A stretch of 64,000 nucleotides of DNA. Source: a virus (Duplodnaviria > Heunggongvirae > Uroviricota > Caudoviricetes > Thumleimavirales > Hafunaviridae). Made by a program: the position numbers and the translations under genes. Positions 14,497 through 61,083 of this stretch are shown piece after piece. Each line of letters starts with the position of its first letter. The stretch's first letter is position 1. The notes beneath the pieces are model-generated. The model was not told the DNA's origin. It was given only the letters and a program-made list of their open reading frames with translations, and did not search any database. The stretch is taken from the IMG/VR virus record IMGVR_UViG_2595698612_000001, positions 10,520 through 74,519 of that record; one strand, 5' to 3'.

Positions 14497-15702
14497 ATGG
14501 TCAATTACGGAAGTGGACACCTTGGCGACGAAACGATTAGCACGGACGCTACCAAGAATACCCCAATTCTTGAGTACGAAAATCTAACAGTAGAAGAAGG
14601 GGCAACTCTCAGTTTGCCCTCCAGAGTTCGTCTGATGGTTAATGATACTCTTACGGTAAATGGAACCATCAGCGTCTCTAATGATATTTCAGGTTCGGGT
14701 GGAAATGCAAGTGGTGGGGATTCTGGAGGCAACCTCGAACTAATTGCCCGAACCATCGCCGGTACTGGACTAATAGAAGCAGATGGTGATAATGGGGATA
14801 CTGCTAATAACAGGGGAAATCGAAATAACGGCGGAGCTGGTTCTGGATACAGTATCCCGACTACTGGAGCATCGGGTTCTGGAGGTAGCGGTGGTGGAGT
14901 TGGTGCTAATGCGGACTATGATAGTGCAAATGGATGGAATGGCCCAAGAAATGGAGGCGGGGCCGGAAGTCAGCACTCGTCCATCTATAATGATTCAACT
15001 CTGAAGCCGTACCTTGAGGATTACCTTCTCTCGGGAGCATATATTACTCAGAGTCCCATCGACACTATTCTTCCCGGTTCTGGAGGAGCTGGTGGAGGTG
15101 GTGGTGGTGAAGGTCTTGACGACCCCCACTCAAACAACAACTACGCAACTGAGCAAGTAGAAGTTGGTGGAGGTGGAGGTGGTGCTGGTGGCAGTTTCGT
15201 CTCTAAGGGTGGTTCTGGTGGAAATGGACACCACAGACGAGACTACGACCACAATATAATCTCCAACAACACCGACTCCAATAACAACAACACCGGAGGT
15301 AATGCCTACATAAAAGGCGGCGGTGCTGGTGGTGGAGGCGGTGCTGGTGGCTTTATCCTGCTCGTTTCAGAAGAAGTGGGTGAAGGAGTTACCTTCTCTG
15401 CCATTGGCGGTGACGGTGGAGATGGATTCTGGAGTCTTGTTGACGGTCGAAATGTCGAATCTGGTGGAAATTACAGCAACTTCCAGTACGAAGAATCCTC
15501 CCGTGATGGTGGAGGTGGAGGCGGTGGTGCTGGAGGCGTGATTATTGGGTTCGTTGACAAAACGCCTACTATTGAGCTTTCTGGAGGTTCTGCTGGTATT
15601 CCGGGTGGTCAGCGCAGAGATGGTTCCAACTTCAACTCCAATGCTGGTTCCCCCGGCCAAGATGGAATCACGTTCTTCTACGACATTAAGGAGCTAATCT
15701 AA
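14497..15702 (+). CDS. glycine-rich tail fiber / receptor-binding protein (401 aa)
   Basis: Long low-complexity GGAGGGGG tracts separated by short variable segments, typical of distal fibre/adhesin proteins. Confidence 0.5.
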   Translation: MVNYGSGHLGDETISTDATKNTPILEYENLTVEEGATLSLPSRVRLMVNDTLTVNGTISVSNDISGSGGNASGGDSGGNLELIARTIAGTGLIEADGDNGDTANNRGNRNNGGAGSGYSIPTTGASGSGGSGGGVGANADYDSANGWNGPRNGGGAGSQHSSIYNDSTLKPYLEDYLLSGAYITQSPIDTILPGSGGAGGGGGGEGLDDPHSNNNYATEQVEVGGGGGGAGGSFVSKGGSGGNGHHRRDYDHNIISNNTDSNNNNTGGNAYIKGGGAGGGGGAGGFILLVSEEVGEGVTFSAIGGDGGDGFWSLVDGRNVESGGNYSNFQYEESSRDGGGGGGGAGGVIIGFVDKTPTIELSGGSAGIPGGQRRDGSNFNSNAGSPGQDGITFFYDIKELI

Positions 15703-20585: not shown

Positions 20586-20810
20586 ATAAAGAACCACACA
20601 CCGTGGGTATATAAAACGGGGGGTGTCGGGTGGGACTTTATTTCCCATCATTCGGTTGTGGAAACGCGGTGATACACGCACGGCATACGGGGCTATACCC
20701 CCTATTTATTTATAAGCAGAGTTGGTAGTAGAGGGTACAGAGGCACGCAGAAGGGGTAGTTACCGGCAAAGGTAGCCCCTTTCAGGGCCGAAGGCCACCT
20801 CGGTAAAGCG

Positions 20811-20857
20811 CGTCCTTGGTAAGGACGAGAGCGGGGGTTCAAATCCCCCCTCAGGCT
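20811..20857 (+). other. tRNA-Thr(GGU)-like 3' half (anticodon arm to acceptor 3' strand); candidate attP core
   Basis: CGTCC-TTGGTAA-GGACG anticodon arm and GGGGG-TTCAAAT-CCCCC T-arm are present. The 5' half does not fold as a tRNA. Lies immediately upstream of the integrase. Confidence 0.4.
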
Positions 20858-27380: not shown

Positions 27381-27426
27381 CATAGATATGTCTCTCTGGT
27401 TCAGATTAGCGTACAGAACAGTCGCT

Positions 27427-41671: not shown

Positions 41672-41752
41672 TATGTTGAACTCTGGTTTCTCTGGTTCTG
41701 GTCGTTGGTCGGTACGTAGCCAGCTACGGCATAGGTATTTGCGCCGTAGAAA

Positions 41753-41823
41753 GTCTGGACGGACGGAATCGAACCGCCCTTGGGAGGGTTACAGCCTCCG
41801 CGTTCGCCTTGAACACTTCCAGA
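41753..41823 (-). tRNA. tRNA-like gene, possible tRNA-Tyr(GUA) with non-canonical acceptor/D-arm
   Basis: Perfect anticodon arm GGAGG-CTGTAAC-CCTCC and T-arm GGCGG-TTCGATT-CCGTC. Acceptor 6/7 bp and D-arm short (GTTC-AAGGC-GAAC). Boundaries approximate. Confidence 0.35.
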
Positions 41824-41903
41824 AATGGCCTATGATTGGGGGTGTCCACACCGCGTGAACGGGAGTGGCTACAAAGGTACGGCCAGCACCTCGCGTAGCC
41901 AAG

Positions 41904-41976
41904 CGCCGAGGACGGGACTCGAACCTGTGGCTACCTGATTAACAGTCAGGCGCTCTACCAACTGAGCTACCTCGGC
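41904..41976 (-). tRNA. tRNA-Asn(GUU)
   Basis: GCCGAGG acceptor, D-arm GCTC-AGTTGGTAG-AGCG, anticodon arm CCTGA-CTGTTAA-TCAGG, T-loop TTCGAGT; acceptor ends complementary. Confidence 0.85.
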
Positions 41977-42003
41977 AAGAGAAGGGGAGGATTGGGTGCT
42001 TGT

Positions 42004-42058
42004 CCTCACTCTATTAGATGTGGGACTAAGACTTAAAGATACCTATTTGAGTCTTAAG
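42004..42058 (+). promoter_or_regulatory. composite operator/promoter element, copy iv; heads tRNA-Asn and downstream leftward genes
   Basis: CCTCACTCTATTAGATG ... GACTTAAAGATACC ... TATTTGAGTCTTAAG. Confidence 0.55.
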
Positions 42059-42139
42059 AGTCGTCGGGAGGGATACCCCGCTCGATGAAGTGAATTGGAA
42101 GTGGAGAACCGAAGCCGGGGAGAGAAATGATAGAAGACA

Positions 42140-42349
42140 TTACTTATCGAAGCGGTTGACCCACGTAGAGAGATTCTTGACGGAGAGGCCGTCAGAGCGA
42201 ATATCGTCAGCGAGAGAATTGATAGCAGAGAGTAGAGTAGAATCGTTCCACGAGGCGGGGTAGTCGAGAGAGATGATGTCCACCTCGTCGCCGTTGCCGA
42301 AGGGTTCGAGAGTCGCTTCGAGGTCGCCGGAGGTCTGAGTGTAGCTCAT
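42140..42349 (-). CDS. hypothetical protein (69 aa)
   Basis: Coding-like small ORF. Confidence 0.35.
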   Translation of the reverse strand: MSYTQTSGDLEATLEPFGNGDEVDIISLDYPASWNDSTLLSAINSLADDIRSDGLSVKNLSTWVNRFDK

Positions 42350-42477
42350 GCGGGAGTGTTGATGGGATTCACGACGTGGTTCGGCTCCGCAGAGGGAGCG
42401 AGCGGGACTTCCGGGCCGGTGGGAGTATCGAAGGAGACAGCGCCGACGCCACCCGCCGGAGGGAGGTCGTCGTCCAT

Positions 42478-42885
42478 TTACTCCTCCGCGAGAGCGTCGA
42501 AGTTCGGGACGACCGTGCCGTTCACTCGGTTGCCGGGAACGGACATTCCCGTAAGCTCGAACACGTCGGCCACCTTTTCGATACCGAACGCATCGAGCAG
42601 GTCGAAGAACTCAGCGGAAGCATCCTCGATTCCATCAGGGAGGTCGAACTCCAAGTCTGCCGGGTTCGGGCCGTTCTCTGTGTACGTGGGAATGACCACG
42701 TACAGGTCTTCGGTCAGCTCACCACGGTCGATGAGTCTCGGCTCACCGAGCTGAATCTGCACCTCGAAGCCGGAGTCGGTGCGTTCCGTGATTGCGTTGA
42801 AGACTGCCTCCGCCCCACCGAGGTCGAGGTAGTCGTATTCGTCGCCGTTGCTACTGAACAGTAGGTTTCGGATGAAGCCAAACAT
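42478..42885 (-). CDS. hypothetical acidic protein (start trimmed to MFGFIRNLLF, 135 aa)
   Basis: Start preceded by the ACCAGAGAGAAA leader motif. The N-terminal extension in the track is Arg-rich and unlikely to be real. Confidence 0.45.
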   Translation of the reverse strand: MFGFIRNLLFSSNGDEYDYLDLGGAEAVFNAITERTDSGFEVQIQLGEPRLIDRGELTEDLYVVIPTYTENGPNPADLEFDLPDGIEDASAEFFDLLDAFGIEKVADVFELTGMSVPGNRVNGTVVPNFDALAEE

Positions 42886-42967
42886 AGTTTCTCTCTGGTT
42901 TCCAGCAGATAACCGCCGCTGGCACGGCTTAGGTAGCGTAGTACCGAATCCCCTATGACGGAGGGGA

Positions 42968-43039
42968 GAGCAACCGGCGGGAATCGAACCCGCAGAGCGT
43001 GGCTTTCGCTTCGCCCCCATTGCCAGTAGGTGTCGGTTG
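42968..43039 (-). tRNA. tRNA-like element: perfect 7-bp acceptor stem and T-arm, non-canonical D/anticodon region (anticodon undetermined; possible pseudo-tRNA)
   Basis: GCAACCG...GCGGG-TTCGATT-CCCGC-CGGTTGC-T. The internal 40 nt do not give a standard cloverleaf. Confidence 0.4.
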
Positions 43040-43115
43040 CGAGTCGCGGATTGCCGCGCCCACGCCCATCAAGGGGCATGGTCACGCGGCCTCCACCGGG
43101 GCGACTACCCGGCTC

Positions 43116-43186
43116 ATGCGACCGGAGGGAATCGAACCCTCGTTGGCGGCTTGGAAGGCCGCCGTGATACCACTACACTACGGTCG
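43116..43186 (-). tRNA. tRNA-Gly(UCC)
   Basis: GCGACCG acceptor, D-arm TAGTGTAGTGGTATCAC, anticodon arm GCGGC-CTTCCAA-GCCGC, T-arm GAGGG-TTCGATT-CCCTC, 3' CGGTCGC-A. Confidence 0.85.
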
Positions 43187-43196
43187 CAAAACGGAG

Positions 43197-43331
43197 AACG
43201 AGCGTTCTACTCGTTCTTCATTTCGTACATCGTCTCCTCGTGTTCCAGCTCAGCCTGCCGCCGGAAGTAGCCGAACGCGACCACCGTAACCACGGTCACG
43301 AGGAACAGCCACAGAAGAATCAAGAAGACGA
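43197..43331 (-). CDS. small membrane peptide (44 aa, not in track)
   Basis: MFKVVFLILLWLFLVTVVTVVAFGYF... lies directly downstream of the SPFH gene. Coordinates approximate. Confidence 0.3.
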
Positions 43332-43342
43332 CTTTGAACATC

Positions 43343-44218
43343 CTACTCGTCCTCGTCGTTCGTGTCCTTCACGAGAGTCGGAGTTTCGTCGGAGGGGAGG
43401 TAGATGGTCTTCCCGTCCGAGTTCTTGATTGCCTCGATGTAGCGAATCTGGATGAGTTCGGGGTTGTTACGAACGGACTCAGCGACGATGCGGTTCGCCT
43501 CTGCCTCACCGCGAGCCTTCTCGATTTCGGCGCGAGCCTCCTGCTTCGCCACCTCAACCTCGGCCTCAGCCTTCAGTTCGCGCTGTTGGGCGACCTCCTT
43601 CTCGGTGATGGAACGCTCGTAGGACTCGGGGAAGTTGACCTTCGTAATCTGAACGGAGTCCAGAACGAGTCCCGTCTCAGAGAACTTCTCCTCAAGCTGT
43701 TCACGAGCATCCATCGTAATCTCGGTCTGACCCTGCGACGTGTAGACCTCGCTCGTCGGCATACTGCCCGTGGTCACGAGCATCTGCTTGGCGAGCGTCG
43801 TCCGAATCATCCGCTTCTCGGCGTTCTCAAGAGTGCGGTAGTCCGTGTAGAAGTCAGTCACCGCCTCCGGGTCGTTCGGGAGCTGGTAGCGAACGGTCAC
43901 GTCGAAGGTCGCCTCCACACCATCGGCGGTTTTCACCACGATGGGGTCAGCATATTCCTTCGCGCCCTCTCCGGGGTTCGAGGTCATGGTGTACGCCTGC
44001 TGTCGGGTGGAGAGCGTCACCACGTCGTTCTTGACGGGAGTAATCCAGTTTGCTCCGGGCTGAATTACCTCTCCGGTTGCGTCACCCCACTCGGTGACGA
44101 CGCCGACGTTTCCTTCATCAACGGGGTTCCATGCCATCGCACCGACGATTCCCGACGTGAGAATCAGGAACGCCATTGCGACTCCGATTGCCTTCAGTTT
44201 GAAAGTAGTTAGTTCCAT
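43343..44218 (-). CDS. SPFH/band-7 (stomatin/prohibitin-like) membrane protein (start trimmed to MELTTFKLK, 291 aa)
   Basis: N-terminal TM helix, then SPFH core, then a long EA-repeat coiled coil (ELKAEAEVEVAKQEARAEIEKARGEAEANRI). Confidence 0.7.
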   Translation of the reverse strand: MELTTFKLKAIGVAMAFLILTSGIVGAMAWNPVDEGNVGVVTEWGDATGEVIQPGANWITPVKNDVVTLSTRQQAYTMTSNPGEGAKEYADPIVVKTADGVEATFDVTVRYQLPNDPEAVTDFYTDYRTLENAEKRMIRTTLAKQMLVTTGSMPTSEVYTSQGQTEITMDAREQLEEKFSETGLVLDSVQITKVNFPESYERSITEKEVAQQRELKAEAEVEVAKQEARAEIEKARGEAEANRIVAESVRNNPELIQIRYIEAIKNSDGKTIYLPSDETPTLVKDTNDEDE

Positions 44219-44270
44219 TTCGTAGATTTCTCTCTGGTCTGTTTCATAGAGCGATACACCGCATCGAGTT

Positions 44271-44290
44271 GGGAGGAATCGAACCTTCCC
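44271..44290 (-). other. isolated T-arm-like hairpin (GGAAGG-TTCGATT-CCTCCC) upstream of SPFH gene; possible tRNA remnant
   Basis: T-loop consensus is present but no complementary acceptor strands were found. Confidence 0.25.
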
Positions 44291-44404
44291 TCTAAGCGTA
44301 CCAGCAACCCGGAAAAGCCACCGCAGGGCGGTAGCTGGACACCAACGAGTTAAACCATGACAGGACTCAGCCAAGCAAACGAGTCGAGGGGGCCACCGCG
44401 ACCT

Positions 44405-44458
44405 CCTCACTCTATTAGACGTGGTACTATGACTTAAAGATACCGCTTTGAGTCTTTG
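44405..44458 (+). promoter_or_regulatory. composite operator/promoter element, copy v; heads the SPFH leftward operon
   Basis: CCTCACTCTATTAGACG ... GACTTAAAGATACC ... GCTTTGAGTCTTTG. Confidence 0.55.
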
Positions 44459-44514
44459 ACCCCGTGCTAAACAGATAGCAAAGACTTAAGCGAGCTAACT
44501 CCGTCTTTGTACGC

Positions 44515-51079: not shown

Positions 51080-52876
51080 TTATCGCCACGGTGCGGCTTC
51101 CGGGTCGTTCCAATGCTCCGGGGGTTCATCCCGAATCGCCTCGGTGAACCACTCCGGCGGCTTCGTCCGGTTCATCAGCTTGTTGAACGCCCCGTCGATG
51201 ACGTAGTACGACGCGGCTTCACTCGGTTCGGGGCCACGAACGGCGCGACCCACGGACTGCTGAACATCGAGGGAAGCGGATTCCATATACCACTTCCAGT
51301 CGTTCCGCTCATCGAGCAGGTAGGACACTCGGCTGTCCCCGAGGTACGGGTAGGGAACCTTCAGGAGAACCTGCCACCGGCAACGGTCGCCGTAGAGGTC
51401 AACGCCCTCCATCATCGACGGGGAGATGAGAATGTCCTTGTCGGAGTTAACCCACTCCTCAATCATCTCCTCCTTGTCCTTCTCTTGGTCTTGAACGATA
51501 GCGTTCTCACTCCCAAGAGACGCGCCAAGCTTCTCCGCTCGCTTGTAGGAGTTCGTGTGAATCAGTCCCTTTTCGCCCTCGTGGTGACTGTGAATCTCGT
51601 TGATAGTGCGAATCACCTTCGACCAGTTGCGGTCTTCGCCGTCTCCACTCATCGAGCCGACGATGGTGTTCGTGTGGATGAGTCGGTGTTCCTCGGGGAA
51701 CGGCATCGTCCGGCTGATGAGCTTCGTAGAACCTTCGAGGCCAATCCGGTCGGCCCACTCTGCGATGTTCTCCCGGTAGGGAATCGTAGCCGACGAGATA
51801 ACGCGCTTCCGACCACGGCTCCAAATGAACCGTTCGAGGAACTTGTCCACGTCCACCGGACTAACGACCATCTTCTTCTGGTGGGACTTCCCGAACTTGC
51901 TAACCGTCACAGTCCACGGTCGGTCTTCCTTCACTTCTCGGTGGCAGTATTCGACCTTCTTGATGAAGTCCTTACATTGGTCAACCTCTGCCTGTCGGTT
52001 CGGGTCTTCGTCGTGTCGGTCAACGAAGTTCGTCGCCCGGTCGTAGAGGCTGTTGAGGATGGGTGTAATGTCCTCGAACCGCTCGAAGTCCCACGAAATC
52101 CGGTCGCCCGTGTTCCGGTAGACCTCGTTCGGGAGAACCCACGGCGAGATAGTGAACCCCGCGAACAACGAAGCCACTTGGCTTTCGAGGCCGTGTCCTT
52201 CGTCCACAATCACGAGGTCGCGGTTATCGAAGGAAATCTGCGCCTCTTGAACCTGATTCACCATAATCGTCGTCGGGAGGTAGTTGTCCACGACGAGCAT
52301 AGCGAACGTGAGCGCCGCTATGTCGGCGTCCATCGCTCGGGCCTTCGCTCGCCAGTAGGTACACCCGGCGATTGTTCGGCAGGACTCTCCCTCCGTCTCG
52401 TCGGCCAGCGTACAGTCCTTACAGTTGTCGCCGCTCGCCCCGCAGATGTAGTCCTGCCGGGACTTCAACATCGTGACGTATTCCTGAAGGTCAACGTCGT
52501 TGGCGAGCTGGTTTCGGAGTTGCTTCTGTGGGGTCGTGTAGAACGATTTGCCCCCGTCGATGCCGTAGAGCTTGTAGTTGAAGTGGTCTTCAATCCGGCT
52601 CTTGTTCTTAGCGAGGTGGGAAACCACCCGGCCAAGCGTCACGTTGATGGGAGACTTCCCAATCCCGGTGGGGCCGTCGATTACGACGTTCGTGTGACCG
52701 TCGATGAACAGGGCTTCGAGAGCATCCTTTAGGATTTCATCTTGGTAGTCACGGTATCCGGGGAAGGGGAACAGGTCGTCAGCGAGGTCGAACAGGTACT
52801 CGCGGAGGCCGTCCCGGTTCCTCGAATAGTTAGCTAACGGTTCTACTCTCTGGTTCTGGATTGCTGTTGTGGACAT
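51080..52876 (-). CDS. XPD/Rad3/DinG-family Fe-S DNA helicase (598 aa)
   Basis: Walker A VIDGPTGIGKS, four-Cys Fe-S insert (CGASGDNCKDCT...CRTIAGC), DEAH-type LVIVDEGH, C-terminal helicase motifs. Confidence 0.75.
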   Translation of the reverse strand: MSTTAIQNQRVEPLANYSRNRDGLREYLFDLADDLFPFPGYRDYQDEILKDALEALFIDGHTNVVIDGPTGIGKSPINVTLGRVVSHLAKNKSRIEDHFNYKLYGIDGGKSFYTTPQKQLRNQLANDVDLQEYVTMLKSRQDYICGASGDNCKDCTLADETEGESCRTIAGCTYWRAKARAMDADIAALTFAMLVVDNYLPTTIMVNQVQEAQISFDNRDLVIVDEGHGLESQVASLFAGFTISPWVLPNEVYRNTGDRISWDFERFEDITPILNSLYDRATNFVDRHDEDPNRQAEVDQCKDFIKKVEYCHREVKEDRPWTVTVSKFGKSHQKKMVVSPVDVDKFLERFIWSRGRKRVISSATIPYRENIAEWADRIGLEGSTKLISRTMPFPEEHRLIHTNTIVGSMSGDGEDRNWSKVIRTINEIHSHHEGEKGLIHTNSYKRAEKLGASLGSENAIVQDQEKDKEEMIEEWVNSDKDILISPSMMEGVDLYGDRCRWQVLLKVPYPYLGDSRVSYLLDERNDWKWYMESASLDVQQSVGRAVRGPEPSEAASYYVIDGAFNKLMNRTKPPEWFTEAIRDEPPEHWNDPEAAPWR

Positions 52877-52955
52877 TTCTTAGAAGGTTCTGGTCAGCTC
52901 GTCACAGCCGGGGCGACCAACTCCCGACGACGCCCCAAAGTGGGGCGTTTCGCCG

Positions 52956-54955: not shown

Positions 54956-55195
54956 AGTAGACTCGTTGTTTGCTCCTCCGCCTTTCCGTGGCTGGCATCA
55001 TCAGACTACCCGAACCACCGGGTAGTGACACCCCTCGATGGGGTGTTTCGCCATTAGAATATCTCAGGTCGAACTACCTCGAACACGATTATCGCAATCC
55101 AGAGAACGAAGGACGCAAGAAGAACCTCAGCAGGAATCATACCGGGACAGCGGCCCCGCCGCCACCCCGTCGCTTGAAGAACTCTCGTAGGAGGT

Positions 55196-59920: not shown

Positions 59921-59983
59921 CGGTAGTATGGACTACCGGAAGCCCCGCTACGGAGTCGAACCGTAGTTCCCGCCACTCGGGGC
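59921..59983 (-). ncRNA. tRNA top-half-like structured leader element, copy A (hairpin CGGTAG/CTACCG + acceptor-like stem GCCCCG/CGGGGC enclosing T-arm-like hairpin CTACGG-TTCGACT-CCGTAG)
   Basis: Read in sequence on the - strand. The loop TTCGACT matches the T-loop consensus. Shares architecture with copy B but has different, compensating stems. Confidence 0.5.
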
Positions 59984-61022: not shown

Positions 61023-61083
61023 CGGTAGCCGTTGCTACCGAAGGCCCTTCCGGGGAGTCGAACCCCGGTGTCGCCACTAAGGG
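61023..61083 (-). ncRNA. tRNA top-half-like structured leader element, copy B (CGGTAG/CTACCG hairpin + outer stem CCCTT/AAGGG enclosing CCGGGG-TTCGACT-CCCCGG)
   Basis: Same architecture and conserved loop/linker (AGTGGCG) as copy A, with covarying stems. Confidence 0.5.

Follow-up and report, generated by a model that had tools for sequence, protein, structure and literature searches.

tRNAs and tRNA-like elements in mRNA leaders of the haloarchaeal virus HRTV-8: candidate punctuation signals for host tRNA-processing enzymes

The tRNA cluster of Halorubrum tailed virus 8 (HRTV-8, Hafunaviridae) contains two "broken" tRNAs that, judged by sequence comparison with related viruses, are conserved tRNA-shaped RNAs just 5' of genes and probably act as cutting signals for the tRNA-processing enzymes of the host. 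Our reading is that the tRNAs and tRNA-like elements of the cluster are punctuation signals at which host RNase P and tRNase Z free the tRNAs and set the 5' ends of mRNAs, and we give it an even chance (probability about 0.5). What we infer is cleavage at these sites in HRTV-8, along with possible consequences for how stable the mRNAs are or how well they are translated. The label "degenerate tRNA" masks at least one element that belongs to a separate family of conserved structured RNAs, and at the tRNA-Gly site most relatives carry a new, unannotated 81-nt tRNA-like RNA of predicted Y shape. Published accounts of the haloferacalesvirus tRNA loci (PMC7230728, PMC8707807) neither annotate nor discuss this RNA, nor do they cover three features described below: the element at 42969-43040, the central hairpin and the motif in the leaders.

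The window, i.e. the whole stretch of 64,000 nucleotides analysed, is HRTV-8 with 100% identity to KC292020, and the region is the early/middle-gene tRNA cluster of this haloarchaeal myovirus, a salt-loving archaeal virus. The cluster is already known, and its tRNA-Asn and tRNA-Gly are already annotated. The annotated tRNA loci of the haloferacalesviruses HF1, HF2, Serpecor1, Hardycor2, HRTV-5 and HRTV-8 are the same loci, with tRNA-Tyr annotated in HF2, Serpecor1 and Hardycor2 and tRNA-Arg in most relatives (PMC7230728, PMC8707807). A sequence-only reading of the window had claimed five tRNA or tRNA-like elements on the minus strand, and ARAGORN, Rfam RF00005 and inspection of stems found all of them; what needed correction was an "orphan T-arm", an "unfoldable" core and the placement of a leader motif. 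The features are, in the direction of transcription:

44404-44460, minus strand: class I intergenic repeat promoter, homologue of HF2 IR2 (repeat family D1/D2, pattern match, HF2 position)
44313-44403, minus strand: conserved 5' leader from the predicted TSS to the mini element (13-virus alignment)
44264-44311, minus strand: mini tRNA-like element, 48 nt (alignment with relatives; model R1 19 bits, E = 0.02)
44227-44238, minus strand: leader motif ACCAGAGAGAAA, kept in 12 of 13 relatives, 8 nt 5' of the SPFH ATG at 44218
43343-44218, minus strand: SPFH/Band 7 protein gene (Pfam Band_7, E = 5e-34)
43207-43341, minus strand: 44-aa membrane ORF, with the SPFH gene the putative first processed unit (43207-44218)
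43117-43187, minus strand: tRNA-Gly(UCC), canonical, CCA not encoded (ARAGORN; RF00005 72.6 bits; record annotation)
43052-43091, minus strand: conserved "central hairpin" (model R1 46 bits over 43011-43103)
42969-43040, minus strand: tRNA-sized tRNA-like element (fold −31.6 kcal/mol, z = −2.5)
42886-42968, minus strand: ORF80 leader (RNAalifold consensus: three conserved hairpins, then single-stranded ACCAGAGAGAAA)
42003-42059, minus strand: class I intergenic repeat promoter, homologue of HF2 IR3 (pattern match, repeat family, HF2 position)
41904-41976, minus strand: tRNA-Asn(GUU), canonical (ARAGORN; RF00005 73.0 bits)
41754-41822, minus strand: tRNA-Tyr(GUA), non-canonical (ARAGORN; RF00005 31.6 bits in a local scan)
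41672-41753, minus strand: ORF76 leader, after tRNA-Tyr (alignment of relatives; ATG 41671)

ARAGORN called Tyr(gta) at 41753-41822, Asn(gtt) at 41903-41976 and Gly(tcc) at 43116-43188. As claimed, tRNA-Asn and tRNA-Gly are canonical (73.0 and 72.6 bits; RF00005 gathering score 29 bits); copies of tRNA-Asn in relatives reach 72-79 bits and that of HRTV-8 has a single A·C mismatch in the T-stem. A match of tRNA-Gly to mascRNA (Rfam, 16.9 bits; gathering score 42.5) was discarded as not significant. The Tyr-like gene passed the covariance threshold in the local scan and was missed in the whole-window gathering run. It had rightly been called imperfect: it has C1-G72, A73, the anticodon loop CUGUAAC, a 5-nt D-loop, no position 9 and an A6·G67 mismatch; the HF2 copy scores 48.1 bits. 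The gene is found in HRTV-25 too, and 99.3% of the cells of the alignment are paired, with three compensatory pairs, all in the anticodon stem. A non-canonical tRNA-Tyr(GUA) is shared by the whole family, and the HRTV-8 gene is a copy of it with slight damage. The viral tRNAs likely support the high Asn and Tyr use of the virus and its GGA codons. None of the elements encodes CCA. To release a tRNA, an endonucleolytic cut after the discriminator (tRNase Z) is therefore needed, and this cut inevitably gives the RNA downstream its 5' end.

The T-arm at 44271-44290 is not an orphan. It belongs to the 48-nt mini element, which has a 6-bp acceptor stem (CGGGTT/AACTCG in the DNA, CGGGUU/AACUCG in the RNA), a 14-nt connector and the T-arm GGGA(A)GG-UUCGAUU-CCUCCC, and which lacks an anticodon arm. 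Most relatives have tRNA-Arg(UCU) at this site. The literature mentions a partial tRNA-Arg in HRTV-8 and Serpecor1 and ascribes a 28-nt deletion to the element at 44264-44311 (PMC7230728), whereas its acceptor stem and T-arm are complete. Since most acceptor and T-arm positions differ from tRNA-Arg and still pair, the element is apparently no simple deletion product. Compensatory changes were sought among relatives and none was seen, the fold was no more stable than that of shuffled sequences, and three metagenomic contigs carry two disruptive substitutions. In the element at 42969-43040, the sequence-only reading had correctly seen a perfect acceptor stem (7 bp, GCAACCG/CGGUUGC) and T-arm (canonical, 5 bp, GCGGG-UUCGAUU-CCCGC), followed by the discriminator U; the core, however, is not unfoldable, since D-arm and anticodon arm are replaced by a hairpin with a GNRA cap (GAAA). 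As a tRNA this element was rejected: ARAGORN and Rfam made no call, and the best match was tRNA-Sec with 23 bits against a gathering score of 47. Its acceptor stem is compensatory relative to GCGACC/GGUCGC of other viruses.

The Y-shaped RNA of the relatives combines an acceptor stem with an invariant hairpin and a bulged T-arm, and acceptor stem and T-stem always add up to a 12-bp stack. In three genera, pairing holds in 99.6% of cells and seven pairs are changed on both sides, although one tight genus supplies most of the comparison and many compensatory pairs come from just two outlying genomes, HRTV-25 and HRTV-27. Four of the six acceptor pairs are compensatory (GCGACC/GGUCGC, GUCCUC/GAGGAC, GCUCCC/GGGAGC). 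The score was reached by none of 500 shuffles, slid controls paired at 37-47%, and a model built from this RNA found 20 full copies, each above 100 bits. On this comparative evidence the Y-shaped RNA is under structural selection. Its discriminator can be U, A or G, and such variation speaks against a conserved identity for aminoacylation. In HRTV-8 the central hairpin stands outside the tRNA-like fold (model R1) and occurs once in the window. It has an outer stem of 6-7 bp, a UGA bulge, the invariant inner hairpin CCAUGCCC-CUUGAU-GGGCGUGG and a 1-nt bulge; 94% of cells are paired, four pairs are changed on both sides, and 0 of 500 shuffles matched the observed score. The 22-nt invariant inner hairpin is not needed for recognition by RNase P or tRNase Z, implying an additional function.

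Each of the three leaders holds at least one tRNA or tRNA-like element in every lineage, and the kinds interchange. The SPFH leader has either tRNA-Arg or the mini element; the ORF80 leader has tRNA-Gly alone in the relative L023, the Y-shaped element in most viruses and both in the HRTV-8 group; where tRNA-Tyr was deleted, tRNA-Asn is fused by its 3' end to the leader of ORF76; and contigs that lost the SPFH operon retain the two tRNA-like elements one after the other. What archaeal RNase Z needs is present in the degenerate copies: the enzyme strictly requires the acceptor stem but can do without the D, anticodon or T arm (PMC7479834).

Non-coding leader identity to most relatives is 0.91-0.97, compared with 0.62-0.73 at synonymous sites. 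For ORF80 the leader reaches 0.91-0.97 to most relatives and 0.86 to VOLN27B, and the synonymous sites 0.63-0.73 (HSTV-3 0.85); the leader at 44313-44403 reaches 0.80-0.95, and the synonymous sites in the neighbouring SPFH gene 0.62-0.81. The ORF80 leader is non-coding because relatives differ by one-nucleotide indels. RNAalifold detected no covariation in the leader hairpins, which are supported by conservation. Leaders, including T-arm and 3' acceptor strand, are under strong purifying selection, and this together with the compensatory evolution in degenerate copies argues against simple decay. The leader at 44313-44403 has a hairpin GCUACCGC/GCGGUGGC at 44317-44335 followed by UUUU (44313-44316); that of ORF76 has a hairpin CUACGGCG/UGCCGUAG at 41724-41749 and the motif variant ACCAGAGAAACC at 41685-41696. 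The motif had been thought to follow each tRNA unit. Exact copies of ACCAGAGAGAAA do occur in the window at 44227-44238 and at 42888-42899 (2 nt 5' of the ATG at 42885), and only there; the copy at 27389-27400 has one mismatch and is preceded by a promoter and no tRNA, and what comes directly after tRNA-Asn, and likewise after tRNA-Gly, is a further tRNA or tRNA-like element instead. The motif goes with leaders, not with tRNAs. Four of the ten occurrences of CCAGAGA in 64 kb sit 6-17 nt 5' of the start codons of these leaders. The T-loop motif GGTTCGAWTCC is found ten times in the window, where 4.2 were expected, and none of 100 shuffles had as many; half of the ten copies are inside the tRNA island.

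The two claimed promoter copies were borne out: a 37-nt pattern matches twice in the window with 0 matches expected. The promoter at 44404-44460 has the TATA box TTTAAG and a predicted TSS at a G near 44410-44412; for that at 42003-42059 the TSS is predicted near 42009-42011. In the HF2 record, IR2 is annotated at the position matching 44404-44460, and the order IR2-tRNA-Arg and IR3-tRNA-Asn-tRNA-Tyr is as in HRTV-8. The anatomy proposed earlier holds: a promoter comes first, then a tRNA or tRNA-like unit, then the conserved leader and last the ATG. For HF2, the sister virus, promoter activity of IR2 and IR3 was proven by reporter assay and primer extension, and IR3 gives rise to the 18-kb transcript F52; because Northern species were only 1-2.5 kb, its authors suspected transcript processing (PMC8707807). 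It should be added that U-runs of 4-5 nt lie just 5' of tRNA-Gly (UUUU at 43189-43192) and of the mini element, and could terminate transcription; if so, downstream units would need unrecognised promoters.

We propose that the two class I promoters drive polycistronic transcripts in which three tRNAs (Asn, Gly and the non-canonical Tyr) and two tRNA-like RNAs reduced to the acceptor/T-arm "top half" would be embedded directly 5' of mRNA leaders. In each element, the cut on the 5' side would fall to host RNase P and the one behind the discriminator to tRNase Z; this would free the viral tRNAs and divide the long transcript into units. The downstream mRNA would begin at the tRNase Z site, with a structured leader whose end, just 5' of the ATG, is single-stranded ACCAGAGAGAAA. 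A tRNA that the virus can spare for decoding would not have disappeared; a tRNA-like punctuation element would have taken its place. In Hölzle et al. (2012), the majority of the tRNA-like elements predicted by computer in Haloferax reportedly remained uncleaved in vitro. RNase P and tRNase Z are described as cutting Haloferax t-elements in vivo, one of which sets the 5' end of 5S rRNA (PMC4326828).

It is unlikely that the region holds just ordinary decoding tRNAs (Asn, Gly, perhaps Tyr) and decaying relics, co-transcribed with mRNAs incidentally and without a role in maturation; we likewise doubt that the mini and tRNA-like elements are pseudogenes born of deletion and recombination. The published deletion in tRNA-Arg, the mismatches in the Tyr and Asn copies of HRTV-8, a mini element disrupted in some contigs and devoid of covariation, and the highly mosaic nature of the virus group, evident in the leader alignments, would all fit decay; loss of tRNA-Arg would be tolerable, since AGA is rare in the virus (2.7 per 1000 codons). 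However, the Y-shaped element stays paired in three genera despite wholesale replacement of its acceptor, the leaders with T-arm and 3' acceptor strand are conserved far above synonymous sites, no leader of any lineage lacks an element, and the mini element pairs even where it is unlike tRNA-Arg.

Equally unlikely is that the tRNA-like RNAs are functional small RNAs, released by tRNA-processing enzymes and acting via the central hairpin, with mRNA ends secondary; possible roles are binding of viral or host proteins, mimicry or decoy against a tRNA-targeting defence, or regulation of translation. The near-invariance of the inner hairpin in three genera (CCAUGCCC-CUYGAY-GGGCGUGG) exceeds what a cleavage signal needs, the inner hairpin recurs with a different outer stem and no tRNA nearby in a Halobacteriales MAG, and the module shifts between leaders, following tRNA-Arg in L023 and a different tRNA in L035. 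The viruses also encode an RtcB RNA ligase (PMC8651126), which suggests that tRNA damage and repair are of importance during infection. Such RNAs have no known partner, though, and in HRTV-8 the hairpin lies outside the tRNA-like fold; punctuation is the simpler account because the element is invariably in a gene's leader and swaps with true tRNAs. Very improbable are DNA-level or coding features, i.e. att-like recombination or integration sites or N-terminal extensions of the downstream proteins. RefSeq gp052 and gp054 of HRTV-8 (CDSs 43343-44410 and 42478-43020) run in frame across elements and small ORFs are annotated in HRTV-25 and HRTV-27, but the frames are broken by 1- and 2-nt indels among relatives, where short CDSs are annotated; the SPFH start is there placed at 44218, and not at 44410 across the tRNA-like element as in RefSeq. 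tRNA 3' halves are classical att sites, and tRNA-Gly with a partial 3' repeat resembles an integration scar; yet the known attP is another tRNA-like sequence adjoining the integrase, at 20787-20857 (PMC8707807). Moreover, the "repeats" are only ~125 nt apart, and the invariant G·U pairs fit the transcribed strand only.

Phage tRNA clusters such as that of T4 share transcripts with other genes and depend on host RNase P and RNase Z for maturation; in viral tRNA-like structures (plant-virus 3' TLS, MHV68 tRNA-miRNA units) tRNA mimicry serves RNA processing. Phage clusters are usually viewed as decoding aids; plant TLSs are aminoacylated and stand at genome 3' ends. To our knowledge, none of these is an archaeal virus element replacing a tRNA in an mRNA leader. 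In the tRNA punctuation of animal mitochondria, MALAT1 mascRNA and NEAT1 MEN-beta, cuts by RNase P and RNase Z at embedded folds set the ends of neighbours, in another domain of life and another type of genome; mascRNA sets a 3' end, here it would be an mRNA 5' end. Close in kind is the Haloferax volcanii t-element, likewise haloarchaeal, non-decoding and directly 5' of another RNA, whose tRNase Z cut makes the 5' end of that RNA and of which engineered versions are cut in vivo (Hölzle et al. 2008, 2012, as cited in PMC4326828). The HRTV-8 elements, known here from sequence, share no homology with it; they are viral, precede mRNAs and not rRNA, swap with true tRNAs and have either a Y shape with invariant hairpin and bulged 6-bp T-stem or the 48-nt mini form. 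The same concept, processing that sets mRNA 5' ends, is met in the type II hammerhead HHphage of HF1 and HF2 (RF02276), a leader cleavage element ~13 nt 5' of a start codon, for which an mRNA 5' end was mapped no more than 3 nt from the cleavage site (PMC3088659). This hammerhead is self-cleaving, unrelated in structure and no substrate of host tRNA enzymes; an Rfam scan of the window found two copies in HRTV-8.

The 3.3 kb around the island are 100% identical to Halorubrum tailed virus 8 (HRTV-8, KC292020/NC_021321; Hafunaviridae, genus Haloferacalesvirus); window coordinates plus 10519 give the coordinates of the virus record. Sister viruses in the HF1/HF2 group, about 35 in number, are 85-99% identical to it over this 3.3-kb region. 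A protein-based scan of GTDB genomes found no deeper homologues, a metagenome scan for homologues gave just 5 close loci, and homologues of the SPFH protein outside the genus are less than 40% identical. The HRTV-8 record has annotations in this stretch for tRNA-Asn and tRNA-Gly but for none of the other elements, across which it places two CDSs. The HF2 record lists IR2 (a class I intergenic repeat, IR), tRNA-Arg(TCT) and the prohibitin gene, followed by IR3, tRNA-Asx(GTT), tRNA-Tyr(GTA) and ORFs, which is the order of genes and elements in the window. Dyall-Smith and colleagues described a partial tRNA-Arg(TCT) with a 28-nt deletion in Serpecor1 and HRTV-8 (PMC7230728). The tRNA island is already known, and its observation is real and largely annotated or published before. 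Neither PMC8707807 nor PMC7230728 describes the leader architecture or the tRNA-like element at 42969-43040 with its relatives, and no record inspected annotates them. What is added here is the recognition of a conserved, covarying tRNA-like RNA family in leaders of Hafunaviridae, of which HRTV-8 has a rearranged and a mini form.

tRNA genes and tRNA-like elements of the island
41753-41822, - strand: tRNA-Tyr(gta), called by ARAGORN (element span 41754-41822)
41903-41976, - strand: tRNA-Asn(gtt), called by ARAGORN (RF00005 model span 41904-41976)
42969-43040, - strand: tRNA-like element
43116-43188, - strand: tRNA-Gly(tcc), called by ARAGORN (RF00005 model span 43117-43187)
44264-44311, - strand: mini element, 48 nt

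An element was counted as a tRNA if it reached the gathering score of 29 bits of Rfam RF00005 and a cloverleaf with anticodon was called. tRNA-Asn (73.0 bits) and tRNA-Gly (72.6 bits) are clear members and canonical, as the sequence-only reading had it. The tRNA-Tyr that it called imperfect is a marginal member, with 31.6 bits in a local scan and no report in the whole-window gathering run; these three are the only elements of the island that reach 29 bits, and both the element at 42969-43040 and the mini element fail. The HF2 orthologue of tRNA-Tyr scores 48.1 bits, and the gene is present in 11 of 13 aligned viruses. The Rfam scan of the relatives missed some copies, for which we assume the speed filters to be responsible because scores differed between runs; absence from that table was not counted as evidence. 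Archaeal tyrosine identity elements are C1-G72, A73 and the anticodon, and tRNA-Tyr has C1-G72, A73 and the anticodon loop CUGUAAA. Its D region is unusual, with a D-loop of 5 nt and no nucleotide at position 9. Over seven distinct sequences 99.3% of the cells of the cloverleaf are paired, three pairs in the anticodon stem of the HF2 copy are changed in a compensatory way relative to the other copies, and HRTV-25, a virus of a different genus, has another copy, whose acceptor changes are compensated. The sole unpaired cell is the acceptor mismatch A6·G67 of HRTV-8. Further changes in the HRTV-8 copy are A38>C and, within the T-stem, a G·U pair, so this virus carries a lightly damaged version of a tRNA that is non-canonical but conserved.

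The T-loop motif GGTTCGAWTCC occurs 10 times in the window (4.2 expected; none of 100 shuffles reaches this number), five of them in the island. The suggested comparison of anticodons with codon usage gave 35 AAC, 32 TAC, 17 GGA and 2.7 AGA per 1000 codons of the virus, and the low use of AGA fits the loss of an Arg decoder. The 80-nt spacer between tRNA-Asn and tRNA-Tyr (41823-41903, - strand) contains a conserved hairpin GGCUAC...GUAGCC and is mosaic: it is 18 nt long in HF2, of other sequence in VOLN27B and HCTV-7, and extended by a 33-nt insert in Hardygib1 and HRTV-18.

The element at 42969-43040 is not a tRNA. It has no match to RF00005 at E <= 10, no ARAGORN call and neither D-arm nor anticodon arm; its best Rfam match is tRNA-Sec with 23 bits, compared to a gathering score of 47. 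Acceptor stem and T-arm are there, as described before; the core is not unfoldable, since a GAAA-capped hairpin replaces the anticodon region (-31.6 kcal/mol, z = -2.5). The gap between a small ORF and ORF80 in which it lies was aligned across relatives and exists in three states.

States of the gap between the small ORF and ORF80
State 1, L023 (one metagenomic contig): tRNA-Gly(UCC) alone
State 2, most viruses: an 81-nt, Y-shaped tRNA-like RNA, the Y-element, in place of tRNA-Gly
State 3, HRTV-8, HRTV-10, VOLN27B and the comparison locus L027: tRNA-Gly, then a hairpin (43052-43091), then the tRNA-sized element (42969-43040)

In acceptor stem and T-arm the Y-element still has the sequence of tRNA-Gly (GCGACC...GGUUCGAUUCCCGCCGGUCGC); its acceptor stem is 6 bp long, and its 6-bp T-stem has a bulged base. 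In place of D and anticodon arms it has a long hairpin whose outer stem is of 7 bp, with a UGA bulge and the inner hairpin CCAUGCCC-CUCGAC-GGGCGUGG. A search with the hairpin pattern recovered it in two further genera, in HRTV-27 (Minorvirus; acceptor GUCCUC/GAGGAC) and HRTV-25 (Laminvirus; acceptor GCUCCC/GGGAGC), in both cases inside a gene leader and beneath annotations as 'hypothetical protein'. In nine distinct sequences 99.6% of the cells are paired (100% in the acceptor and T helices) and seven pairs, including four of the six acceptor pairs, are changed on both sides; much of this acceptor covariation comes from two outlying genomes. The covariation score was reached by none of 500 shuffles, and slid controls were 37-47% paired. 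Taken by itself, the hairpin has 94% of its cells paired over seven variants, the HRTV-8 form among them, and four of its pairs show changes on both sides.

Model R1, a covariance model of the Y-element alignment, found 20 full copies above 100 bits among the loci collected, and a rearranged form with 35-46 bits in the HRTV-8 group, in L023 and in the contig L035. HRTV-8 has no full-length Y-element; its rearranged version (46.4 bits over 43011-43103) has a 32-nt insert instead of the T-arm, and T-arm and acceptor are found in the separate element at 42969-43040. There the T-arm is canonical and a new 7-bp acceptor, GCAACCG/CGGUUGC, is compensatory with respect to GCGACC/GGUCGC.

Two known motifs were considered for the central hairpin by inspection. 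A K-turn was rejected for lack of tandem G·A pairs; a bulge-helix-bulge, as in introns, was rejected since 8 bp instead of 4 come after the 3-nt bulge, and no 3-nt bulge lies opposite. The inner hairpin also occurs, as CCAUGUCC-CUCGAC-GGGCGUGG with a different yet paired outer stem, in an intergenic region of a Halobacteriales MAG (JAXHLL010000006.1, 5095-5132), where ARAGORN found no tRNA within 8 kb; this copy is either a provirus remnant or a host RNA motif. The invariance of the inner hairpin together with this tRNA-free copy points to an additional partner. L035, an unrelated-looking viral contig of 71.8 kb (IMG/VR 3300019927_000008), has a cluster of at least five tRNA or tRNA-like genes. 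One of them is followed by a TGAGCCGG...hairpin...AAUCCGCGACU module, as is tRNA-Gly of HRTV-8; the post-tRNA module thus moves between viruses.

The supposed orphan T-arm is a T-arm, and it is not an orphan: a 6-bp acceptor stem is also present, giving the 48-nt mini element 44264-44311. It fills the tRNA-Arg position in HRTV-8, Serpecor1, the HSTV-3/HSTV-4/HJTV-2 group and five metagenomic contigs, and consists of the acceptor CGrGUU/AACUCG, a 14-nt connector and the T-arm GGG(N)(N)GG-UUCGAUU-CCUCCC with one bulged base. Since it is unlike tRNA-Arg at most acceptor and T-stem positions and yet paired, it is not simply tRNA-Arg minus 28 nt. Its 3' 20 nt are invariant. Compensatory changes were sought across the copies and none was found, and two disruptive substitutions occur, in three metagenomic contigs; support for structural selection on the mini element is weak. 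Neither mini element nor Y-element has a match to RF00005 in the window or the relatives (E <= 0.1), and ARAGORN was negative for both. Model R1 aligns the mini element as a hairpin-less Y-element (19 bits, E = 0.02 in the window). No family in Rfam 15 matches the mini element, the element at 42969-43040 or the Y-element. Together with its covariance model, the covarying tRNA-like RNA is a candidate for Rfam-type curation as a new family.

The elements precede three leaders, those of the SPFH gene, ORF80 and ORF76, and each leader has at least one tRNA or tRNA-like element in every lineage examined. tRNA-Arg and mini element alternate in the SPFH leader; the ORF80 leader has tRNA-Gly, the Y-element or both; the ORF76 leader has tRNA-Asn with or without tRNA-Tyr. 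In the locus L038 a Y-element follows tRNA-Asn after 2 nt, and in contigs without the entire SPFH operon mini element and Y-element lie in tandem behind the promoter. In HRTV-5 and HSTV-3, where tRNA-Tyr is deleted, tRNA-Asn is joined at its 3' end to the leader that otherwise follows tRNA-Tyr. The constant feature is a tRNA-type 3' end that adjoins a conserved leader.

Identity of HRTV-8 leader segments to nine relatives, with four-fold synonymous sites as reference
T-arm to ORF80 start codon, 105 nt: 0.91-0.97 (VOLN27B 0.86)
SPFH leader: 0.83-0.96
Leader segment next to the promoter, before tRNA-Arg or the mini element: 0.80-0.95
ORF76 leader: 0.74-0.88
Reference, synonymous sites of ORF76: 0.72-0.86
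SPFH and ORF80 four-fold synonymous sites: 0.62-0.73 for eight of nine relatives (HSTV-3 0.81-0.85)

Single-nucleotide differences in leader length exclude coding. The RefSeq starts at 44410 and 43020, which would read across the elements (CDSs gp052 and gp054 of HRTV-8 extend upstream over them), were rejected as well because indels of 1 and 2 nt among relatives break the frames, and relatives annotate shorter CDSs. The small 'hypothetical proteins' of HRTV-27 and HRTV-25 overlie the Y-element, one of them on the opposite strand. The CDS annotations at 43343-44410 and 42478-43020 (- strand), and those at 919-1122 of locus L043 and 817-981 of locus L044, appear to be wrong; 'hypothetical proteins' misannotated over structured RNAs are thereby flagged in several RefSeq halovirus genomes.

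In the ORF80 leader RNAalifold predicts three conserved hairpins, in which no compensatory changes were found, followed by the single-stranded motif ACCAGAGAGAAA. The sequence-only reading had placed this motif behind each tRNA or tRNA-like unit. Only two places in the window, 42888-42899 and 44227-44238, have it exactly; at 27389-27400 it differs in one position and is preceded by a promoter instead of a tRNA. The shorter CCAGAGA lies 6-17 nt upstream of a start codon in four of its ten copies in the 64-kb window, namely in the three leaders of the island and in the IR-driven leader at 27399, and HRTV-27 has ACCAGAAGAA immediately before the ATG. A Shine-Dalgarno role of ACCAGAGAGAAA, which is single-stranded in the consensus fold, was rejected because, by inspection, it is not complementary to an anti-SD target of the GGAGGUGA type. 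Similarly, ACCAGAGAGTAG at 52843-52854 lies downstream of a hammerhead and was discarded as a leader copy, since it is within a 598-aa ORF.

The composite promoter copies noted before, 42003-42059 and 44404-44460, are real repeats. Both are intergenic, contain alpha, BRE/TATA (TCTTTAAGTC) and gamma (CGTCTNNTAGAG) motifs in this order, and align with HF2 IR3 and IR2, respectively. In HF2 every class I IR drove a bgaH reporter, with initiation at the G in the conserved gamma motif (PMC8707807). The HRTV-8 copies are class I IRs and predicted promoters, activity and start sites having been shown for the HF2 orthologues (PMC8707807). Runs of 4-5 U directly upstream of the tRNA-Gly/Y and tRNA-Arg/mini positions could be archaeal terminators.

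Hammerhead ribozymes precede genes elsewhere in the window.

Type II hammerheads (RF02276)
52889-52955, - strand: 45.4 bits, ends about 13-15 nt upstream of ATG 52876 (598-aa ORF)
54986-55053, - strand: 51.2 bits, about 30 nt upstream of ATG 54955 (149-aa ORF)

The site at 52889-52955 is the 'HHphage' position of HF1/HF2 before the helicase gene, where an mRNA 5' end was mapped at most 3 nt from the cleavage site (PMC3088659). The other has blastn matches in part of the genus only; the halovirus literature consulted here mentions only one hammerhead, compared to the two in HRTV-8.

Little is known on how archaeal viruses convert very long primary transcripts to translatable mRNAs. In HF2, IR3 directs an 18-kb transcript, and the authors suggested that long primary transcripts are processed since earlier Northern blots had revealed mostly 1-2.5-kb species, a discrepancy with the 18-35-kb RT-PCR transcripts (PMC8707807). 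Behind each element of the island a conserved leader of 46-83 nt runs to an ATG with no IR promoter in between, the evidence for co-transcription being from the HF2 IR3 unit only (PMC8707807). CCA is encoded by none of the five elements; release of the true tRNAs therefore requires that an endonuclease cut behind the discriminator, and the downstream RNA would begin there. The degenerate elements retain the acceptor/T-stem stack of 12 bp and the T-loop. A t-element is defined by a stack of about 12 bp and a consensus T-loop without decoding, and such a fold is present in the element at 42969-43040 (7 + 5 bp) as well as in the mini element and the Y-element (each 6 + 6 bp with a bulge); the T-loops are UUCGAUU or UUCAAUU.

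Archaeal RNase Z strictly needs the acceptor stem and still cuts substrates without D, anticodon or T arm (PMC7479834). In Haloferax the cut of tRNase Z at a natural t-element generates the 5' end of 5S rRNA, and engineered t-elements are cut in vivo by RNase P and tRNase Z (PMC4326828). This enzyme tolerance, the t-elements and the hammerhead in the HF1/HF2 leader make cleavage plausible (PMC7479834, PMC4326828, PMC3088659). The likeness to Haloferax is that of a tRNA-like fold upstream of another RNA, and cleavage in HRTV-8 is proposed by analogy only.

The stack retained in HRTV-8 and the published precedents lead us to favour a punctuation model. tRNAs and tRNA-like elements would be cleavage signals for host enzymes, by which viral tRNAs would be released and mRNA 5' ends defined; decoding would be an extra function of tRNA-Asn, tRNA-Gly and probably tRNA-Tyr. 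That tRNA processing makes mRNA 5' ends had been proposed from the sequence; this is reasonable, and the support is indirect. We infer the cleavage, its effect on expression and the roles of leader motif and invariant hairpin. The probability is roughly 30% that in Hafunaviridae dedicated tRNA-derived punctuation RNAs (Y, mini and rearranged) took the leader positions of true tRNAs, that cuts by RNase P and tRNase Z are required for maturation of early and middle mRNAs, and that the released RNA, via its invariant hairpin, and the leader motif ACCAGAGAGAAA together exert a virus-specific control of translation or stability. If true, an archaeal virus would have a tRNA-punctuation system, of which we found no description in the literature searchable here. 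A covarying tRNA-like RNA that swaps with tRNAs before genes offers a concrete, testable mechanism in which host tRNA-processing enzymes would be the viral mRNA-maturation machinery. The elements may also serve haloarchaeal genetics as small natural cassettes for RNA processing, as engineered t-elements already do.

T-loop-like hairpins with perfect 6-bp stems are found at about 59941-59979 and 61043-61068 (- strand; CUACGG-UUCGACU-CCGUAG and CCGGGG-UUCGACU-CCCCGG), and behind each come another hairpin and GUGAGUGACACCUAUG. Both belong to ORF leaders, one ORF each, and sit shortly after promoter-like repeats with the alpha motif; conservation of the 59,9xx region extends over the genus. A reading of the two as mini tRNA-like elements was rejected, 5'-terminal hairpins being more likely, since the acceptor-like 5' strand (59978-59983) is upstream of the transcription start T-4384 mapped in HF2 (PMC8707807). 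This start maps about 10 nt upstream of the hairpin at 59941-59979, which probably forms a 5' terminus and not a mini tRNA.

A weak tRNA match at 20787-20857 (+ strand; 33.4 bits, no ARAGORN call) agrees with the published partial tRNA-Thr-like attP beside the integrase (PMC8707807, PMC7230728). Repeated units of the GGTGGTGGAGG type (repeat family D3) at 14880-15533 (+ strand coordinates) are presumably a glycine-rich region of a structural protein.
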